Shown one piece after another: positions 3,801-24,981 of a DNA stretch of 26,775 nucleotides (the first letter of the stretch is position 1; each line of letters opens with the position of its first letter). The notes under the pieces were generated by a model, which worked only from the letters and a program-made list of their open reading frames with translations, searched no databases and was not told the DNA's origin. Origin of the DNA: a virus (lineage: Duplodnaviria; Caudoviricetes); IMG/VR virus record IMGVR_UViG_3300012953_000184, positions 1 to 26,775 of that record; one strand, written 5' to 3'. A program made the translations under genes and the position numbers.

Positions 3801-3835
3801 TTTACCACTTCGCTTTTTTGCTGTTTATAGTAGTA
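3801..3835 (+). promoter_or_regulatory. Putative late promoter, copy 1: TTTACCACTT-N11-TGTTTATAGTAGTA
   Basis: Both boxes and the 11-nt spacing recur exactly at 24570-24604; lies just upstream of the scaffold-capsid-tail tube operon. Confidence 0.7.
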
Positions 3836-3846
3836 GACGCAGATAT

Positions 3847-4440
3847 ATGAAAGCAACTGAAATGGTAGATAAGATCAAAGACTTGCTTGGCATAGAACTT
3901 ACAAGCCAAGAAGCAGAGGCAGTTAAACTGGCTCAGTCCACACTTGAAAACGGAACAGTCATAGAATACGAAAGTATGGAAGCAGGGTCTCCTGTTTTTA
4001 TTGTTTCAGAGGACGAAAAAATCGCCCTTCCCAGAGGCGAGTACACTTTAGAAGACGGAAAAATTTTAGTGGTTGTTGATGAAGGCGAAATAGCTGAAAT
4101 CAAAGAAGCTGCCGAGGAAGACGTTGAAGCAACTGAAGAAGTTGAGGCTGCAAAGGAAGAAGAAGAAGTGACAGCCGAGTACATCGAAAGAGATGAGTTT
4201 GATGCGCTTAAAAAACAAATTGAGGATTTGAAGCGTGAGTTTGAAAAGCACTACGACGAAAAAGAAAAAGAGGAAATGGCAAAAAAAGAAAAAGAAGAAT
4301 TGTCAAAAGTTGAAGTAGATGCCGAGCCTGTATATCACAGCCCAGACGCCACGCAAGAAACAAAAATGAACATCTCTACAGCATCAAACTACAGACAAGA
4401 AACAACCTATGACAGGGTATTAAAAACATTATACAACTAA
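3847..4440 (+). CDS. Capsid scaffolding protein (putative)
   Basis: Very acidic, coiled-coil; LPRGEYTLEDGKILVV motif; lies between protease and major capsid protein. Confidence 0.7.
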   Translation: MKATEMVDKIKDLLGIELTSQEAEAVKLAQSTLENGTVIEYESMEAGSPVFIVSEDEKIALPRGEYTLEDGKILVVVDEGEIAEIKEAAEEDVEATEEVEAAKEEEEVTAEYIERDEFDALKKQIEDLKREFEKHYDEKEKEEMAKKEKEELSKVEVDAEPVYHSPDATQETKMNISTASNYRQETTYDRVLKTLYN

Positions 4441-4446
4441 ACAATT

Positions 4447-4854
4447 ATGTCACAAACAATAACATACTCAAACGGAGCATTAAGAGAAAAACCAAATTTT
4501 CTTAGCGTATCCGCAGACACAACACTTAGCCTTGAAGATAATGGTAAGACAATCCTTATTGGAGGCACATCAGGAGCTTATGCAGTTACACTGCCTACTG
4601 TAAAAGACGGATTGCGATTTAAGTTCGTAATAAGCGCAGTATCAAGCGGAATAAGAACAGTAACAATGGGAACTGCCGATAAGCTACAAGGAATTATAGT
4701 AGCCAATGGTGCAGCTGTACCAGGCGTTGATGAGGACAATATTGTTTTCTCAGCATCTTCTAAAGTAGGCGATTACGCTTCTGTTATTTCAGATGGTACT
4801 AACTACTACGTTGAAGGGGCTGCACAAGGCGCAACAATAACACTTACCACTTAA
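4447..4854 (+). CDS. Putative head decoration/structural protein
   Basis: 135 aa, beta-rich and small-residue-rich (TTLSLEDNGKTILI...AVTLP...GLRFKF); lies between scaffold and capsid. Confidence 0.5.
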   Translation: MSQTITYSNGALREKPNFLSVSADTTLSLEDNGKTILIGGTSGAYAVTLPTVKDGLRFKFVISAVSSGIRTVTMGTADKLQGIIVANGAAVPGVDEDNIVFSASSKVGDYASVISDGTNYYVEGAAQGATITLTT

Positions 4855-4873
4855 AAAAAATTAAAAAAGAAAA

Positions 4874-5818
4874 ATGGCAACAACAACCAATATTACAACA
4901 ACATACGCAGGAGAGAGAAAAGTCAAGTATATAACTGCTGCTTTAACATCAGGGGTAACACTCAGCCAAAAGTCTATTAATATTATGCCTAATGTTAAGT
5001 ACAAGGATGTTTTACCAACATTTAGCACAAATGATATGGTAAAAGCTGCTGACTGTGATTTTATCCCTTCTTCTACTGTAACGACAGGTGAGGTAATTAT
5101 TGAGCCTACAGAGTTACAAGTAAACCTACAGCTTTGCAAGAAAAATTTTGTAAATACATGGGATGCAATAGAAATGGGCTACTCGGCACACCACACAATG
5201 CCAAAAACACTTGCCGACTATATGCTAACGTATGTAGCAGATAATATCGCACAGGATGTTGAGAACAATATTTGGAGTGGTGATACTACTTTAACTTCTG
5301 GCAATAACAACTTTGATGGGTTTCAAAAAAGAATTACATCATCTGCACTTTCAGGTGTTGGTAGTTCAACCATTGACAGCTCAAACGTACTTACGTTTTT
5401 AGGAAAAGTGGTAGATGAAATACCATATACTATTTTAGACAAAGAAGACCTTAAAATATGGGTTCCAAACAACGTATACCAAGCTTATGTACGCTCTCTT
5501 GGAGGCTTTGCATCAAACGGAAAAGGCGCAGCAGGTATTGAAAGCAAAGGACATTTGTACTATGACAGAAACATGCCTCTTGGCTTTGATGGTATTCCTG
5601 TTGTACGTGCGCCTGGTATGACATCAAACCGAGCCATTACAGGGCAAACTAAAAACTTGTACTTCGGCACTGGCTTAATGTCTGACCACAACGAGGTAAA
5701 ATTAATTGACACCTCCGACACGCTTGGCGATCAAAATGTACGAATTATAGCACGCTTCACAGCAGGAACGCAAGTAGGTATTGCTTCTGAGGCAAAGCAC
5801 TTTACACCTGCAACATAA
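4874..5818 (+). CDS. Major capsid protein
   Basis: 314 aa; ITTTYAGE start, QVNLQLCKKNF, IWSGD, FDGF, NLYFGTGLMSDHNEVKLID, QNVRIIARFTAGTQVG; position after scaffold. Confidence 0.85.
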   Translation: MATTTNITTTYAGERKVKYITAALTSGVTLSQKSINIMPNVKYKDVLPTFSTNDMVKAADCDFIPSSTVTTGEVIIEPTELQVNLQLCKKNFVNTWDAIEMGYSAHHTMPKTLADYMLTYVADNIAQDVENNIWSGDTTLTSGNNNFDGFQKRITSSALSGVGSSTIDSSNVLTFLGKVVDEIPYTILDKEDLKIWVPNNVYQAYVRSLGGFASNGKGAAGIESKGHLYYDRNMPLGFDGIPVVRAPGMTSNRAITGQTKNLYFGTGLMSDHNEVKLIDTSDTLGDQNVRIIARFTAGTQVGIASEAKHFTPAT

Positions 5819-14243: not shown

Positions 14244-15431
14244 ATGTATTTTTATTTAAAAAACAAAAACACTAACTCAAAGACCTTAATACTTTTAAGA
14301 TATTACGTTGCCAAAGATAGAAAATTGTTTCAGTTATCTACTAAACTTTCTATTAAACCTTCTGACTGGTCTTTTGACAATAGAATGCCTACTCCCAAGC
14401 GTGGACTTGCAAGTGTAGAGAGCAGGCAGCTAACTAATAAGCTAAACCGTATTAATGAGAAGCTACAGGCGGTACTGCTGCATTATGGTAAAGACGTTAG
14501 AGTAGAAAACCTAAAGGAAGCATTTGCACCAAAAAAAAATAAAGAAAACGTTGAGCCTTTGTTTTTAGAATTTATAGAGGAAAAAAAAATACAAGGCACG
14601 CTCAACAAGTCAAGCATACAAAAGTACAATGTGGTGTTTGATAAATACAAAAGCTTTTGTGCAAAACAACACACCAAGTACAAGATAATGCAGCTCAACG
14701 ATGATTTCTACATTGCTTTTTTAAGTTATATGCGGCACGATCACGGCTTAAACGACAACACGCTTTCTCGTTATTTTGTCTGTTTTAAAACATTTGTACT
14801 GTGGTGTCAGCGCAAAGGCATAGAGATTAATACAGACTATAAAAAAGTAACTGTAAAAGAGTATGAAGCAGATGGTATTGCGCTTACTGTTGAAGATGTT
14901 AAGACGCTAGAACAGGCAGAACTCACTGGCGCAGAGGAAAAGGCTAGGGATTTGTTTTTAATTGGTGTGTATTCGGGTCAAAGGTTTTCAGACTACAGCG
15001 TGTTTGACAAGGCAGACGTGCAAGGTAAGTTTATAATAAAACGAGCAGAAAAGACAGAGAAGCACAGTTATATACCGCTTCACAATAAGCTAAAAGATTT
15101 GCTTGACAAGTACGACTGGAGGCTGCCAAAGATAAGCTCGCAGAAGTTTAATGTAAGGATCCAAGCGGTATGTAAGAAATTAGGCTTTGATGAGCAGATA
15201 AAGAAAACTACCTATAAAGGCAAGGATAAGACTGTAGAGATTATACCAAAGTGGCGCATGGTAGCATCGCACACAGCCAGAAGAACCTATACCACACTGG
15301 CGTGTGAGGCAGGAATAGCAGACCATTTCATCATGGCTGTTACTGGCATAAAAGACCCCAAGACACTACAGAAATACAAAAAGCTAAATAAAGAAATGCT
15401 TTTTAAGTCTTCTGCTTCTTTTTGGGTTTAG
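14244..15431 (+). CDS. int: Tyrosine recombinase / phage integrase
   Basis: N-terminal arm-binding-like region, RDLFLIGVYSGQRFSD, AEKT, SHTARRT, C-terminal QKY; adjacent to attP. Confidence 0.93.
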   Translation: MYFYLKNKNTNSKTLILLRYYVAKDRKLFQLSTKLSIKPSDWSFDNRMPTPKRGLASVESRQLTNKLNRINEKLQAVLLHYGKDVRVENLKEAFAPKKNKENVEPLFLEFIEEKKIQGTLNKSSIQKYNVVFDKYKSFCAKQHTKYKIMQLNDDFYIAFLSYMRHDHGLNDNTLSRYFVCFKTFVLWCQRKGIEINTDYKKVTVKEYEADGIALTVEDVKTLEQAELTGAEEKARDLFLIGVYSGQRFSDYSVFDKADVQGKFIIKRAEKTEKHSYIPLHNKLKDLLDKYDWRLPKISSQKFNVRIQAVCKKLGFDEQIKKTTYKGKDKTVEIIPKWRMVASHTARRTYTTLACEAGIADHFIMAVTGIKDPKTLQKYKKLNKEMLFKSSASFWV

Positions 15432-17542: not shown

Positions 17543-17932
17543 ATGAAAATAAATAGAGAAGATTTAGAAGGAATCCTTATAGACAATTTCACAGATAAAG
17601 ATGGACACCTTGATTTATCAGATTTAGACTTTAGAAAAGTTAAAGGCAAAGTAATTCTCACAAGAATGAAAGCAAAGGTAATTAATAACTCATTCCAAGA
17701 AGCAGAGTGGATTGATAACACACACCAAAAAGCAGAGTGGATTGATAACACATACCAAAAAGCAAAGAAGATTTGGAACTATGGTCAAAAAGCAGAGTGG
17801 ATTGAAAACAATAATCAAAAAGCTAAGGTTATTCATAACTATTACCAAGAAGCAGAGTGGATTTTTAACTTATACCAAGAAGCAGAGACGATTAGTAACG
17901 CAAACCAAATAGCAAAGAAGATTATAAAATAA
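17543..17932 (+). CDS. 10-aa repeat protein, paralogue 1
   Basis: TDKDGHLDLSDLDF N-domain plus about 8-9 QxAxxIxNxx repeats. Confidence 0.8.
   Translation: MKINREDLEGILIDNFTDKDGHLDLSDLDFRKVKGKVILTRMKAKVINNSFQEAEWIDNTHQKAEWIDNTYQKAKKIWNYGQKAEWIENNNQKAKVIHNYYQEAEWIFNLYQEAETISNANQIAKKIIK
17666..17929 (+). repeat. 30-bp coding tandem repeat (CAA nnn GCA nnn nnn ATT nnn AAC nnn nnn)
   Basis: Strict 30-bp period visible in the sequence. Confidence 0.9.
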
Positions 17933-20359: not shown

Positions 20360-20381
20360 CTAACCCCAAACAGTAAATAAC

Positions 20382-20702
20382 ATGAAAAAAATAAACAAGA
20401 TAAGAGACTACTTAATTAAGCATAGAACAGATGAATATGGAAACCTTGATTTATCTGACTTAGATTTTAAAGACTTTAACGGTGATATACTGTTGAATGG
20501 AATGGTAGCTAAAAAAAAGATTTCTAATCTCGGGCAAAATGCAAGTATAATTTCTAACACATACCAAGAAGCAGAGACGATTTGGAACTCATGGCAAGAC
20601 GCAGATATAATTTGCAACCATAATCAAACTGCGGATAGTATTGATAACAATAATCAAGAATTAGAACATCGGCATGATGACTGGCGTCAGATGATGCAGT
20701 AA
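20382..20702 (+). CDS. 10-aa repeat protein, paralogue 2
   Basis: TDEYGNLDLSDLDF N-domain plus about 5 repeats (20505-20660) and a unique short tail. Confidence 0.8.
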   Translation: MKKINKIRDYLIKHRTDEYGNLDLSDLDFKDFNGDILLNGMVAKKKISNLGQNASIISNTYQEAETIWNSWQDADIICNHNQTADSIDNNNQELEHRHDDWRQMMQ

Positions 20703-20723
20703 TATTAAAATACAAGTTAAACC

Positions 20724-21260
20724 ATGAAAAAAATAAACGAAATAAGAGACTACTTAATTAAGCACAGGACAGACGAAGATGGAGACCTAGATTTATCAGA
20801 TTTAGACTTTAGAGAGTTTGATGGTGATATAGTGTTAGATAAAATGAAATCCAAAAAAACGATTTCTAATTCATTCCAAGACGCAGATATAATTTGGAAC
20901 AATAATCAAAAAGCAAATAAGATTTGGAACGCATGGCAAGAAGCAAAGGAGATTAGGAACACATGGCAAGAAGCAGAGAAGATTAGGAACGCAAATCAAA
21001 AAGCAAATAAGATTTCTAACGCATGGCAAGAAGCAAAGGAGATTAGGAACACAAAGAGCAGATTAAAAGCATTTCTAAACCGACTATTGACACGCTTAGC
21101 AACAATCTTTTTTTTACTAACAATTCGCGCTTTCGTAGTCATTTGCATTGTAATAGGCTTACCAATATGGTTTGTTACAGGGAAAGCATATTTGACTGAT
21201 TGGAGTATTAGGTTAATGGACAAACTCCTAGATACATATTTCAAGGCTCAAAATAACTAA
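20724..21260 (+). CDS. 10-aa repeat protein, paralogue 3, fused to a C-terminal membrane segment
   Basis: Same N-domain plus about 7 repeats (20847-21053), then LATIFFLLTIRAFVVICIVIGLPIWFV. Confidence 0.8.
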   Translation: MKKINEIRDYLIKHRTDEDGDLDLSDLDFREFDGDIVLDKMKSKKTISNSFQDADIIWNNNQKANKIWNAWQEAKEIRNTWQEAEKIRNANQKANKISNAWQEAKEIRNTKSRLKAFLNRLLTRLATIFFLLTIRAFVVICIVIGLPIWFVTGKAYLTDWSIRLMDKLLDTYFKAQNN

Positions 21261-21277
21261 CCCCAAATAATAATAAC

Positions 21278-21577
21278 ATGAAAGGAATAAACGAAATAAG
21301 AGACTACTTAGTTAAGCATAGAACAGACGAAGATGGAGACCTAGATTTATCAGATTTAGACTTTAGAGAGTTTGATGGTGATATAGTGTTAGATAAAATG
21401 AAATCCAAACAGAGTATTATTAACTCACGCCAACAAGCAAAGAAGATTTGGAACAATGGTCAAGAAGCAGATAAGATTTCTAACTCATTCCAAGAAGCAA
21501 AGGAGATTAGGAACACATACCAAAAAGCAAAGAAGATTTGGAACTATGGTCAAAAAGCAGAGGAGATTGTAAAATAA
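21278..21577 (+). CDS. 10-aa repeat protein, paralogue 4
   Basis: 5' region nearly identical to paralogue 3; about 6 repeats (21401-21574). Confidence 0.8.
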   Translation: MKGINEIRDYLVKHRTDEDGDLDLSDLDFREFDGDIVLDKMKSKQSIINSRQQAKKIWNNGQEADKISNSFQEAKEIRNTYQKAKKIWNYGQKAEEIVK

Positions 21578-21928
21578 ATGATTAAGAGAGTCTACCAGAA
21601 GCGCAACAAGTATAAAGCTGTTAAGCAAATGTTTAATGGTAGGCTATACCACAGCAAAAAGGAGGCAGCCTTCGCCCAAGAGTTGCACCTACGTAAGCTT
21701 GCAGGGGAAATTACTGATATCATTCCACAGTACCCCCTGCGACTTTACGTTAATGAAAAAAAAATATGCAACTACTTCATAGACTTCAAAGTAGTATATC
21801 CTGATAACAGCATAGAGCTAATTGAAGTCAAAGGATTTGAAACAGATATATGGAGACTAAAATGGAAATTAACAGAAGCACTATTAGATGAAATAGAACC
21901 TAACGCAAAACTCGTACTTGTAAAATGA
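21578..21928 (+). CDS. DUF1064-like PD-(D/E)xK endonuclease
   Basis: RNKYKA...YHSKKEA...YFIDF...LIEVKGF...WRLKWK. Confidence 0.8.
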   Translation: MIKRVYQKRNKYKAVKQMFNGRLYHSKKEAAFAQELHLRKLAGEITDIIPQYPLRLYVNEKKICNYFIDFKVVYPDNSIELIEVKGFETDIWRLKWKLTEALLDEIEPNAKLVLVK

Positions 21929-22338
21929 ATGAACAACAAATAAAACTTTTTCAAAGTAAAAAGACAGATAATTGGCAAACCCCTAATTGCTTATATAACG
22001 AACTAAATGAAGAGTTTAATTTTGACTTTGATCCTTGTCCCTTAAATTCTACTTTCAATGGGCTAGATTGTAATTGGGGCAGACGTAATTTTATCAATCC
22101 TCCTTATAGTAACGTCAAGGGATTTTTACAAAAAGCCTATGAAGAGTTACAAAATGGCAACGCTGAAGTTTGCGTTTTTTTAACTTTCGCTAATACCGAC
22201 ACAAAATGGTTTCACGACTATTGTTATAATAAAGCAGAAATAAGGTTTATAAAAGGACGCTTAAAATTTTTAGATGATACAGGTAAAGTAAAAAACAGTG
22301 CTATGAGACCAAGTATAATTTTAATATTCAAAAATTAA
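21925..22338 (+). CDS. Phage DNA N6-adenine methyltransferase
   Basis: DNWQTP, FDFDPCP, FINPPYS, TDTKWFH, IRFIKGRLKF. Confidence 0.88.
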   Translation: MNEQQIKLFQSKKTDNWQTPNCLYNELNEEFNFDFDPCPLNSTFNGLDCNWGRRNFINPPYSNVKGFLQKAYEELQNGNAEVCVFLTFANTDTKWFHDYCYNKAEIRFIKGRLKFLDDTGKVKNSAMRPSIILIFKN

Positions 22339-22349
22339 AAACTAATTAA

Positions 22350-22871
22350 ATGAATATACTCGAAAACCTTAACCAAAACCATAAAAGCTTTGTCTTGTAC
22401 GTAAAGAAAAACGCAAGAACAGAACAACAAAAAAAATACCCAGAGGATGTAGTCCAAGAAGCATACTGCCGCATTATAGAAATACAATCGCAAGGGCATG
22501 AACTGAAATTTGAAAGCTACTCAATGCTTGAAAGGTATTTCTTTAAAACAATTAAAAACATCATGATTAACCAGACACAAAAAAAAACAATACAAGAGCT
22601 GCCAATTAAAGGCGAAATCACTTTTCAAGACGTAAAGGATATTGAAGTTATAGAGCACTCAGAGCTTGTAAAAAAGATAGATCAGGTTGTAGAAACTTTT
22701 TACTGGTATGACAAAATGATGTTTAACCTCTATCGTTATAAAATTCCTTCTATTAGAAAAATATCTAGTGAGACCAAAATAAGCAGACCAAGTGTTACAG
22801 GAACCATCAAAAGCTGTAAGTATAAAATACAAAAGGAACTGGCAACAGAATATTATAAAATAGTGAATTAG
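22350..22871 (+). CDS. ECF sigma factor-like protein (candidate late transcription activator)
   Basis: EDVVQEAY and YFFKTIKN (region 2-like); WYDKMMFNLY...SIRKISSETKISRPSV (region 4 HTH). Confidence 0.75.
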   Translation: MNILENLNQNHKSFVLYVKKNARTEQQKKYPEDVVQEAYCRIIEIQSQGHELKFESYSMLERYFFKTIKNIMINQTQKKTIQELPIKGEITFQDVKDIEVIEHSELVKKIDQVVETFYWYDKMMFNLYRYKIPSIRKISSETKISRPSVTGTIKSCKYKIQKELATEYYKIVN

Positions 22872-22877
22872 TAAAAC

Positions 22878-22923
22878 AGTATTAACCCCAAAAAACGTGA
22901 ACATGAGCAAGACAGAAAAAATG
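22878..22923 (+). repeat. Cassette boundary repeat A
   Basis: 22880-22923 is 41/44 identical to 23251-23294 (TATTAACCCCAAAAAAC..GAACATGA.CAAGACAGAAAAAATG). Confidence 0.9.
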
Positions 22924-23235
22924 AAGAATATACAAATGAAAGAAAATGGCAGGATCGTTTATTGCGATGATAACGGCAAGCCATTGTTTTTATACAATGT
23001 TGAGGTACGTTTTTCTTTGTGGTGGAGTAGATTAATTAAAACTGCTAAAGCTAAAATCTGGTGGTATAAAGGAAGTGTTAAAAACTTTGCTTGGTTTCAA
23101 TTAAGGGCTTGGAACGCATTACGAGGCAAAGAAATGATAATGGATAGCAGGGAGGTTATAACCAAAGGTGGCTACATATTCAAACAACTTGAAATAAGTA
23201 AATCTCCTGTAAGTAAAACGGAGTGTATTGAGTAA
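22903..23235 (+). CDS. Hypothetical protein (cassette 1), Trp-rich
   Basis: ORF bounded by repeats A and B; start 22903, 22921 or 22936. Confidence 0.65.
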   Translation: MSKTEKMKNIQMKENGRIVYCDDNGKPLFLYNVEVRFSLWWSRLIKTAKAKIWWYKGSVKNFAWFQLRAWNALRGKEMIMDSREVITKGGYIFKQLEISKSPVSKTECIE

Positions 23236-23294
23236 TGCACCCTAACAAAATATTAACCCCAAAAAACAAGAACATGAACAAGACAGAAAAAATG
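23232..23294 (+). repeat. Cassette boundary repeat B
   Basis: GTAATGCACCCTAAC-AAAATATTAACCCCAAAAAACAAGAACATG... Confidence 0.9.
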
Positions 23295-23633
23295 GAATTA
23301 AAACACAACATTAGTAAATGGAAAGACGAGAATGGCAATGATTTTATCGCCTTAAGCAAAAGTGTTATACCCAAGCGAAAAGGTCGTTTATTAGTAAATA
23401 GAGAATTGATATTACAAGCTGATGTAGATACACTAAAAGTAATTTTCTCAAACTTTTTTCCTTTAGATGTCAATAGACACCATATTGTAAGCTATTGGGA
23501 TAGCATTGAATATTATGGAATAAGCGAACACTTTGAAGAAGTAGAAGAGTTTTGTGCAGCTCCTACTTATGAAATGTGGCTCAAACGTGATAAAAACGGT
23601 AAAGTAAAGTTTGATAAAATGGTAAAGCTATAA
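23274..23633 (+). CDS. Hypothetical protein (cassette 2)
   Basis: ORF bounded by repeats B and C; IEYYGISEHFEEVEE...PTYE; start 23274 or 23292 rather than 23235. Confidence 0.7.
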   Translation: MNKTEKMELKHNISKWKDENGNDFIALSKSVIPKRKGRLLVNRELILQADVDTLKVIFSNFFPLDVNRHHIVSYWDSIEYYGISEHFEEVEEFCAAPTYEMWLKRDKNGKVKFDKMVKL

Positions 23634-23634
23634 G

Positions 23635-23677
23635 TATTACACCCAACAAAGTATCACCCCCAATAAATGAGAACATG
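23635..23677 (+). repeat. Cassette boundary repeat C
   Basis: TATTACACCCAAC-AAAGTATCACCCCCAA (23635-23663) is 27/29 identical to 24531-24559; continues to GAACATG. Confidence 0.9.
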
Positions 23678-23685
23678 AAGATATT

Positions 23686-23994
23686 ATGGCAAAGTACAGA
23701 AAGAAACCAGTAGTAATTGAAGCGATACAACTTAAAGAAACAAATATTAGTGAAGTGCTAAGTTTTATGGGGCAAAAAGTAAGGTTGCAACCTTTTCAGG
23801 AACAAATGAGATTAGAGCAGTATAAAGATAGTGTTGTTGAAAACGGTATGAATATACATACGCTAGAAGATGGAAGTGACGCAAGGGCAAAGCACGTAGC
23901 GAGTATAGGTGATTGGATTATAAAAGGAATAAAGGGTGAATTTTACCCTTGCAAACCCGATATATTTACCGCTACATACGAAGAAGTAAAGTAG
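23686..23994 (+). CDS. Conserved phage protein, PGDYG-like family (cassette 3)
   Basis: KYRKKPVVIEAIQ...IHTLE...ASIGDWIIKGIKGEFYPCKPDIF..TYE. Confidence 0.8.
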   Translation: MAKYRKKPVVIEAIQLKETNISEVLSFMGQKVRLQPFQEQMRLEQYKDSVVENGMNIHTLEDGSDARAKHVASIGDWIIKGIKGEFYPCKPDIFTATYEEVK

Positions 23995-24037
23995 TATTAT
24001 GCACATCAAAGTATTAACCCCAAAAAACAAGAATATG
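23995..24037 (+). repeat. Cassette boundary repeat D
   Basis: TATTATGCACATC-AAAGTATTAACCCCAAAAAACAAGAATATG; 24007-24037 is 29/31 identical to 23246-23276. Confidence 0.88.
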
Positions 24038-24274
24038 GCTTATAGAATATATGAAATAATAAAACCAGAACGTGACGACTACGACTTGAAAACCACTGAG
24101 TCAATAACATTGAAAGAGGTTGATTGTTATGGTTTGAATTGGTCTTACGTTAGCGAAGTATCTGCTAAAATAGATATTGAACAAAACAAAAAAAACTTAA
24201 AACACAAAGACCTAGTTATATTAGAGGTGATTAATATTACACCTAACGCATTGTATAAGGCAAGTAGCATTTAA
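24035..24274 (+). CDS. Hypothetical protein (cassette 4); 3' end reads into the attC-like site
   Basis: MAYRIYEII...; ATG at the end of repeat D is more likely than 23999. Confidence 0.65.
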   Translation: MAYRIYEIIKPERDDYDLKTTESITLKEVDCYGLNWSYVSEVSAKIDIEQNKKNLKHKDLVILEVINITPNALYKASSI

Positions 24275-24365
24275 AGACCAAAAGAAAAAGTAAATTGATT
24301 TAATAACAGCAAATAGTACAAAAATAAGCCTAACAGCTATTTGCTATATACATTGTTAGGTGTAG
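24235..24365. repeat. attC-like imperfect palindrome (site E)
   Basis: ACCTAAC (RYYYAAC, 24241-47) ... GTTAGGT (GTTRRRY, 24355-61), 121 bp; inner arms TGTATAAGGCAAGTAGC (24252-68) and GCTATTTGCTATATACA (24336-52) are 14/17 complementary; AT-rich centre. Confidence 0.75.
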
Positions 24366-24373
24366 TTAAAATT

Positions 24374-24523
24374 ATGTTTGGAATAGGAAATTATTATGGA
24401 GGATTAAAAATAAAAGAAGAAGATGGTAAATACTTTTGGGGGATAGAAAATTATGATGGAACTGATTTTAAAGAAATACCTAAATACCTTTTTGATTCAT
24501 TGGTTGAATTTAGGGATGAGTAA
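24374..24523 (+). CDS. Small hypothetical protein (49 aa, cassette 5)
   Basis: MFGIGNYYGGLKIKEEDGKYFWGIENYDG...; starts 12 nt after GTTAGGT and stops just before repeat F. Confidence 0.7.
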   Translation: MFGIGNYYGGLKIKEEDGKYFWGIENYDGTDFKEIPKYLFDSLVEFRDE

Positions 24524-24530
24524 TAATTTT

Positions 24531-24559
24531 TATTACATCTAACAAAGTATCACCCCCAA
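24531..24559 (+). repeat. Cassette boundary repeat F
   Basis: TATTACATCTAAC-AAAGTATCACCCCCAA. Confidence 0.9.
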
Positions 24560-24572
24560 CAAAGGGGGGTTT
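24552..24572 (+). terminator. Short GC hairpin closing the early/cassette region (possible weak terminator)
   Basis: ACCCCC-AACAAAG-GGGGGT followed by TT; the T-tract is short. Confidence 0.35.
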
Positions 24573-24604
24573 ACCACTTGTAAATTTTCTTGTTTATAGT
24601 AGTA
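24570..24604 (+). promoter_or_regulatory. Putative late promoter, copy 2: TTTACCACTT-N11-TGTTTATAGTAGTA
   Basis: Boxes and spacing identical to 3801-3835; upstream of the terminase operon. Confidence 0.7.
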
Positions 24605-24981
24605 TGAAACAGAAAGGTTTAGGAGATACGGTAGACTGGATTACTACACACACAGGAATTAAACAAGCAGTCAAATATTTCTTTGGAGACAACTGTGGCT
24701 GCCAAGAGCGTAAAGAATGGCTAAACAAAATGCTGCCATACATGCGTGAAGAACTAACACAAAGCGAGTACTTGCTGCTGCACGATTTCTTCAAAGAAGA
24801 TCACAGTACTGTTACAGCCAAACAACAAAGCCAACTACTTAAAATATACAACAGGGTGTTTGGTAAGCGTAGAGAAATGAGCAGTTGCTCTCCATGCGTT
24901 AAAACACTTGTTGATGAGCTAAAAGAATTATACAATGAATACAGTAAAGCTATTGAGCAAAGTAATAAACGGAAGGCTTGA
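24604..24981 (+). CDS. Conserved Cys-containing phage protein
   Basis: KGLGDTV...TGIK...NCGCQERKEWLN...SSCSPCV. Confidence 0.75.
   Translation: MKQKGLGDTVDWITTHTGIKQAVKYFFGDNCGCQERKEWLNKMLPYMREELTQSEYLLLHDFFKEDHSTVTAKQQSQLLKIYNRVFGKRREMSSCSPCVKTLVDELKELYNEYSKAIEQSNKRKA

Follow-up and report, generated by a model that had tools for sequence, protein, structure and literature searches.

A variable gene-swap island in a marine phage, with one attC-like hairpin and repeated non-folding leader junctions

The stretch of DNA analysed here (the window, 26,775 nucleotides) is an entire linear virus record of 26.8 kb that is about 82% complete, and it carries a row of small genes whose content varies among related phages. 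Comparison with these relatives indicates that the row is a real, inserted and variable gene-swap locus, in which modules appear to be exchanged at repeats, and sequence similarity points to a flavobacterial integron-like system as its likely origin. Cassette arrays of this general kind (CALINs) are already known from phages (PMC9892861), and the layout of the present array, with its non-folding leader units, is a variant of these known phage cassette arrays.

The genes of the window phage include those for an integrase of prophage type, a Dam-type methyltransferase and a terminase, as well as a repressor-like gene, and its sequence occurs in marine metagenomes. Its host is probably a flavobacterium, because the matches of the sigma-like gene are of Bacteroidota type and because element E of the island matches only phages of Tenacibaculum, Cellulophaga and Polaribacter (8 of 8 records by blastn). 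The features of the island and its flanks are as follows.

22350..22871, + strand: left flank, sigma-like gene with weak ECF-sigma matches, conserved in relatives
22873..22923, + strand: junction A, left edge of the island; a leader that lacks a cassette-end box and includes the ATG at 22903 and seven shared codons
22903..23235, + strand: ORF1, no function found
23235..23294, + strand: junction B, cassette-end box and leader; AAC at 23244-23246, ATG at 23274, shared codons
23274..23633, + strand: ORF2, no function found; decayed internal right arm at about 23342-23362
23635..23678, + strand: junction C, cassette-end box and leader; AAC at 23645-23647
23686..23994, + strand: ORF3, common small phage protein (phrog_419), with one match annotated 'PGDYG protein'
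23995..24037, + strand: junction D, end box (ATC for AAC) and leader; ATG at 24035
24035..24274, + strand: ORF4, an orphan that reads into E; a homologue search returned one candidate, itself
24238..24364, + strand: E, full attC-like hairpin of a flavobacterial family; AAC at 24245-24247, GTT at 24355-24357
24374..24523, + strand: ORF5, 49 amino acids, a complete unit
24531..24562, + strand: junction F, cassette-end box and 5' part of the leader, closing the array; AAC at 24541-24543
24560..24606, + strand: copy of a 47-base upstream element, fused to F; it lies behind the terminase in relative L001
24604..24981, + strand: right flank, conserved late gene

A first-pass annotation of this DNA had described five short co-oriented ORFs between the sigma-like gene and a late promoter, the fourth of them reading into E, and had given repeat identities of 41/44 (A/B), 29/31 (B/D) and 27/29 (C/F). 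The ORFs do lie at 22903-24523, ORF4 does run into E, and alignment reproduces all three identities. The view that A to F are six members of one repeat family holds in part: A to D and F have a common leader, while E alone is attC-like and the others do not fold. The repeats were said mostly to end at the next ATG. The leader does reach the start codon in A, B and D, with shared codons following in A and B; in C the ATG lies 11 nt before the start of ORF3 and out of frame, and in F the leader is cut short, with no ATG at its end.

Several lines of evidence from relatives bear on the variability of the island. In the complete relative G001 the stop of the sigma-like gene adjoins the late gene directly, and the island is absent, with no leader, hairpin or small recombinase; the same adjacency is seen in L001, whose sigma-like gene is 76% identical in DNA. 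A further relative (L002) has a methyltransferase gene at the island position. The finer comparison uses contigs of the metagenome runs listed (8 of 24), of which X1 may be the source of the window and the other seven come from seven different seawater studies. These data are assembled contigs, mostly one per junction, and the bodies of ORF1 and ORF4, which are uncovered in most runs, were not counted as absent. Among the matches listed, eight island pieces of at least 285 nt from non-source runs each start and stop at a junction, at the end of ORF3 or at a contig end. The pieces listed are ORF2 units in X3, X11 and X20, ORF3 units in X3 (where it moves as 23645-23990), X14, X17 and X20, and E together with ORF5 in X2 (24235-24550). 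Other genes occupy the ORF1 slot in X3, the position upstream of E in X2 and that behind D in X17, and different genes follow the leader in X17 (after 24028 of junction D), X20 and X3. There are also loose ends off the repeats, namely in X11 at 23049 and 24366 and in several matches of 27-35 nt within ORF4 and ORF5. The relatives bear out the expectation of the first-pass annotation that content varies with breakpoints at the repeats between conserved flanks.

The junctions themselves have a common build. A repeat pattern with up to three mismatches finds six matches in the window, five of them inside the island, against 0.72 expected and none in 100 shuffles. In each of A, B, C, D and F the preceding gene's end box comes first, ending in AAC (with the exceptions of A, where the box is missing, and D), and then a conserved leader, about 30 bases long, which extends to the ATG. 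The first seven codons of ORF1 and ORF2 are common to both and belong to the repeat. Folding was not detected in A, B, C and D (z from +0.6 to +1.3 against shuffles), and F has a short local hairpin only; the leader and the internal right arm of the ORFs do not refold together into a hairpin, and A to D show neither a hairpin nor, in a scan that did not cover Bacteroidota promoters, a sigma-70-type match. At junction A the contigs of X3 and X11 diverge from the window at 22907. Other gene ends and starts are joined at B in X3, X11 and X20, two other gene ends adjoin 23645 of C in X12 and X20, and other gene ends adjoin F in X3, X12 and X17. In total, at least eight different cassette ends adjoin the same leader, four in the window and at least four in relatives (X3, X12, X20). 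These ends differ up to a base or two before the AAC, and therefore there is almost no homology on which ordinary recombination could act. Searches with the leader pattern beyond these relatives gave eight single matches in viral contigs, none in a cassette context, and 91 loci in metagenome contigs, where several copies occur only in L097, a contig identical to the window over 1918 nt, and the other matches are chance-like.

E differs from the other junctions in being a folded site. Within its 127 bases an unpaired spacer separates a terminal stem of 10 bp from an inner stem, and its terminal boxes pair and fit the attC consensus RYYYAAC ... GTTRRRY. The GTTRRRY box of attC is described in PMC9892861. 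E folds end to end, as the first-pass annotation had claimed in calling it a full attC-like palindrome (bottom strand -14.1 kcal/mol, z -2.9, equalled by 2 of 200 shuffles). The two strands scarcely differ in folding (-13.2 and -13.8 kcal/mol), and the bulges are not clearly canonical. E can be aligned with 14 sites picked by hand from two contigs and from cultured flavobacterial phages, and the resulting family shows strong paired variation, although the structure was derived from the same alignment: 10 of 16 pairs are changed on both sides (0 of 500 shuffles; 30-49% of pairs formed in slid controls), and in the inner stem 9 of the 11 pairs are changed on both sides across the 15 hand-picked sites. 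A model built from these sites detects 33 sites in 24 loci with E-values up to 0.5. Within the window, it finds only E, which is in its own training set, the next match having 15 bits and an E-value of 0.37; Rfam gave no match within the island, and E had eight short, chance-like matches in plasmids.

A cassette origin is shown for two of the five genes, ORF2 and ORF5. The 5' box of ORF5 (GTT at 24355) pairs with the end box at F in 10 of 12 positions, within a 28-nt inverted repeat. For ORF2 five homologues were found; the homologue in phage contig L120 (69% identity) is a complete cassette, preceded by a full hairpin and with paired ends. Its hairpin loop contains the start codon, its coding sequence takes in the right arm, and the end box pairs with this arm. 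In the window leader B stands in place of the left arm, the right arm is decayed and a different end box is present, which puts the crossover upstream of the AAC. The internal arm of ORF2 is restored by other letters in X3, X11 and X20. ORF1 carries a similar remnant: at about 22985-23010 lies an attC-like right arm, decayed but still pairing in 8 of 12 positions with the end box of the same gene (23235-23246). ORF1 has ten homologues, and the nine retrieved all read VRVRF or ALRF at the internal right arm, carrying the residues expected of a better-pairing arm. A foreign N-terminus is joined at the right arm in one of these nine ORF1 homologues and in one of the five ORF2 homologues. No paired 5' box was found for ORF3 or ORF4. 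The first-pass annotation had expected homologues of the ORFs to be flanked by the same sites; this is borne out by the ORF2 homologue in L120 and not by ORF3, for which none of the best 80 distant loci (at most 56% identity) has a convincing cassette flank, with one chance-like flag among them. A script for detecting paired cassette ends proved too noisy, with 65 matches in the rest of the window, and was set aside. Searches of Pfam and NCBIfam gave no function for ORF1, ORF2, ORF4 or ORF5, nor did a protein atlas for ORF1 and ORF2. Against cultured phages ORF1 had no match and ORF2 two weak Rhizobium phage matches only, and neither an ORF1 homologue nor the sigma-like gene, used as queries in viral contigs, returned any loci.

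Cultured flavobacterial phages provide the closest view of how such cassettes may move. In Polaribacter phage Freya a non-folding site closes the array together with the gene of a 271-aa Xer-like recombinase, which scores 96.5 bits, in two stretches, against an IntI model with a cut-off of 265; Ingeline and Leef have homologous recombinases behind similar sites. Two pairs of Freya variants differ by an insertion at the AAC of the non-folding site beside the recombinase (307 bp in Freya_10 relative to Freya_9, 472 bp in Freya_6 relative to Freya_5), and both inserts begin with a hairpin left arm and enter at the downstream end of the array. Different cassette ends precede the same non-folding terminal site in P12002L and P12002S and in L120 and L210. 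When P12002L is compared with P12002S, and Danklef with Freya, most breakpoints fall at AAC, with one at GTT and some in shared arm sequence, and it is because of this preference that the hairpin appears, in cultured phages, mostly to travel ahead of the gene while the dock closes the array. E, ORF5 and F stand in the same order as in Freya (hairpin, gene, non-folding site).

The resemblance of the leader to these docks is a separate matter. The core of three known recombinase docks is not shared by the leader. Hairpin left arms have G after the AAC in 20 of 23 cases, and the leader starts with A. An AAC-N7-TAAC spacing as in the Freya and Ingeline docks is present in B (background 6 of 941 AAC triplets), a single post-hoc observation. 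The idea of a leader copied directly from the dock and leader of Freya was tested and not upheld: 1 to 9 of 360 gene starts align equally well, so that the alignment is not clearly above background. A terminal-site pattern returned 24 loci, one of them relevant (L210) and none beside a recombinase.

No Freya-type recombinase was found in the contig (about 82% complete) or in G001, and the 4.6 kb that the window lacks hold, in a relative, five ORFs, none of which matches the recombinase. The IntI-specific model TIGR02249 likewise had no match in the contig, the phage integrase included, in keeping with the first-pass statement that no IntI is recognisable. As far as tested, then, the locus is not IntI-based. 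Instead of the host IntI acting in trans that had first been put forward as one possibility, the enzyme is likely a small Xer-like recombinase from flavobacteria and their phages.

We favour, with some reserve, the reading that the leader is a multiplied dock and translation start, served by a small Xer-like recombinase that probably acts in trans. At the first step, a cassette with its hairpin ahead of the gene would enter at the AAC of a non-folding dock; such entry is shown by comparison of the sequenced variants of cultured phages, and we infer the enzyme. Short-homology deletions at A-rich gene starts would then join a leader to the gene that follows and remove the left arm of the hairpin, leaving the decayed right arms of ORF1 and ORF2. 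Crossing-over between leaders would add or remove whole units. One such case is at hand in X14, which cleanly lacks ORF1 and ORF2, 22898 being joined to 23671 (A to ORF3) where 8 nt overlap at the ATG of the leader, and the process may be general. Finally, the promoterless cargo would be read from the early transcript by way of the leader start. A Freya-type enzyme from the host or from a co-infecting phage may act on the leader, and such a recombinase in trans would exchange the gene ahead of each dock.

The dock role is held no more firmly than this, and homologous exchange keeps a minor share, because position and behaviour fit a dock, the sequence is unlike known docks and the 3' half of the leader occurs elsewhere. 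Under homologous exchange, which we regard as unlikely, the leaders would be phage translation-start modules fused to old hairpin stubs, capture would be ancient, and present shuffling would proceed between repeats of 20-50 bases with no site-specific enzyme on the leader, comparable to the PeSL elements of T4-like phages. The two further copies of the leader 3' half in the window, before two unrelated accessory genes (20361 and 21258) and with no cassette context, point this way, as do the deletion in X14 and the replacement of the ORF2 end box, which are homology-type events, the presence of the leader's first hexamer in 2 of 23 hairpin left arms, the NinB/Orf-like recombination mediator encoded by the phage, and the lack of a recombinase match in the contig. 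However, this reading gives no account of why eight or more different cassette ends join the leader precisely at AAC when they have hardly any upstream sequence in common, and the non-folding terminal sites of cultured phages accept cassettes at the same AAC, which also speaks against it.

Quite improbable, in our judgement, is the view that the junctions are decayed attC sites of a CALIN and that a classical host IntI, cutting at the GTT box, shuffles them. In its favour, E resembles attC in its boxes and size, IntI1 recombined one P12002L site in the experiments reported by Qi et al. (PMC9892861), and there are one GTT-side breakpoint and proteins with N-termini swapped at the right arm; yet five of six junctions cannot fold and have a common conserved leader rather than signs of independent decay, the breakpoints lie mostly at AAC, complete integrons are very rare in Bacteroidetes by IntegronFinder (as reported in PMC9024848), and the recombinase beside such arrays falls far below the IntI cut-off. 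The term CALIN, which the first-pass annotation had applied, was defined with IntegronFinder 2 as a cluster of at least two attC sites without an integron integrase (PMC9024848); it does not apply here because only E folds as an attC-like site, the other five junctions not being attC sites. The assignment to a gene-swapping locus of integron-cassette type stands, given the varying content of relatives and the hairpin-bounded homologue of ORF2. Least probable is that the phage's own 395-aa integrase (14244-15431) moonlights on the island sites. It is the sole tyrosine recombinase in the contig, but its arm-binding and SAM-like domains are those found in ordinary prophage integrases, and it lies 7 kb from the array, has a close homologue in a relative without the island and does not match the Freya-type enzyme.

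Qi et al. (2023, PMC9892861) reported 17 phage CALINs, including that of Polaribacter phage P12002L, where IntI1 was active on one of two sites, and their full site tables may include further flavobacterial phages. Like P12002L-type CALINs, the island is a phage-borne row of small co-oriented genes with an attC-like hairpin and no IntI; unlike the phage CALINs described in that source, it has one full hairpin and five non-folding leader units. E matches one P12002L site by blastn and aligns with three, and is not equated with the active site attC2. Also comparable are the arrays in Freya, Danklef and Leef (all Polaribacter phages) and in Cellulophaga phage Ingeline, which have a 263-287-aa Xer-like recombinase; the genomes are described in PMC8776804, in the searched text of which the words 'integron' and 'cassette' are absent. 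These arrays and the window have in common the hairpin family, a hairpin before the gene (E-ORF5) and a non-folding closing site, and the insertion of cassettes at AAC in the former fits the junction pattern of the latter. Freya-type arrays, however, have one dock beside the recombinase, whereas the window has five leader copies that differ in sequence from those docks, and no small Xer-like recombinase beside a dock was found in the contig. The paired cassette ends typical of these arrays are present at E and ORF5, persist as remnants in ORF1 and ORF2 and are unseen in ORF3 and ORF4.

Like classical integrons, the island has single-gene cassettes, the AAC/GTT triplet and a folded site set against a putative double-stranded dock. 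In the classical system IntI has its specific insertion, attC lies behind the gene and entry is at the promoter-proximal attI; the window has no IntI, and E-ORF5-F and Freya show the reverse order, with a dock downstream of the genes and the crossover at the box after the stop of the gene. Classical integrons also include SALINs (10.1101/2022.09.11.507474) and cassettes of the delta-attI type, in which genes bounded by attI-derived sites are reported to be mobile (PMC12901181). The rAID-1 arrays of gut Bacteroidales (10.1101/471110), as described there, are likewise from Bacteroidota and have an XerD-like recombinase and integron-like intergenic repeats; in these the recombinase lies 5' of an array of co-directional, low-GC immunity genes, whereas the window is a marine phage in which no such recombinase was found. 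PeSL elements (PMC2839356) are also short repeats that bound non-essential genes and support modular shuffling, but they are reported to combine a promoter with a terminator hairpin; the leaders here start at a cassette-end box and in A to D show neither. The literature searched, in which subscription journals are thinly covered, yielded no description of a dock-and-leader array, nor of the Freya-type system in phages.

A broader reading, which we put forward tentatively, is that the island may be a domesticated, reverse-polarity, IntI-free integron system of a widespread marine phage lineage, in which a single dock became a repeated 30-base junction, each copy a gene capture point for a borrowed Xer-like recombinase, and in which gene starts in hairpin loops would build chimeric proteins. 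If so, the 30-base junction would be a recombination target and a ribosome start at once, and the island would be a concrete source for the small orphan genes in variable regions of marine phages. It would also offer a testable case of a tyrosine recombinase without the IntI insertion that moves hairpin-bounded cassettes. The Freya_5/6 and Freya_9/10 variants and their hosts are in culture, and therefore the enzyme, the polarity and the dock role are directly testable. Since detectors based on attC see at most one site here, such arrays are probably under-counted.

The sequence between F and the late gene, which had first been called a late promoter, is by similarity a phage element and a putative promoter. 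A promoter scan gave 4 matches against 10.9 expected and hence carries no weight, Bacteroidota promoters lying outside its range. The element (24560-24606) is 84% identical over 49 nt to positions 8304-8352 of L001, and in run X1 a second copy of it stands before another gene.

The window varies in places other than the cassette island:

20361-21577 (and 17543-17932): second accessory region, paralogous ORFs made of 10-residue repeats
21925-22338: Dam-type methyltransferase, missing at this place in X2, X3, X11 and L001

Comparison of contigs with the window reveals that position 21922 is joined to 22348, with the methyltransferase missing, in three seawater metagenome runs (X2, X3 and X11) and in L001, a relative without the island; this gene is modular as well. 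At the position of 20361-21577, L001 carries an unrelated gene instead. In front of two of the 10-residue-repeat ORFs in the window lies the 3' half of the island's leader, the conserved repeat unit that runs to an ATG. Within the island, ATGs at 23233-23237 and 23999, 5' of leaders B and D, share the reading frame of ORF2 and ORF4, respectively, and the one at leader B overlaps the stop of ORF1, so that translation could be coupled through the leader.

Whole-cassette differences can be seen in cultured flavobacterial phages. The Polaribacter phages Freya_1 to Freya_10 (L231, L244-L249), isolates of a single species, differ from one another in entire cassettes next to a small recombinase whose annotation reads simply integrase; they provide a natural test system that is already at hand. 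In Danklef_5, the recombinase gene (L230 9080-9589) has lost its 5' part, and the left arm of a hairpin has been joined into the gene at a short stretch that the two share. In phi17:1 (L228), a unit of about 190 bp is present twice (3817-4010 and 4789-4980); both copies begin at the AAC of the cassette-end box, each behind a different cassette end.

Many annotated ORFs in phages JQ (L011), phi18:3 (L012), P12002L (L203), phi17:1 and Danklef_5 begin within a hairpin loop and continue through the right arm, so that swaps at the GTT of the opposite hairpin box yield chimeric proteins. The phi17:1 gp8 gene and the hairpin-bounded ORF2 homologue of phage contig L120 have the hairpin in common but differ in gene body.

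Hairpin-family sites and other repeated junctions also occur elsewhere. A near copy of E, the attC-like hairpin of the island, lies within a flavobacterial-type cassette row in L119, a contig from a bin labelled Glaciecola that may be a mis-binned phage fragment. In L164, L168 and L173, a different short stop-to-start junction is repeated on either side of the ORF3 homologue. On a Flagellimonas plasmid (L251 860-3777), a related small recombinase has a hairpin-family site and an erm(F) gene in its vicinity.
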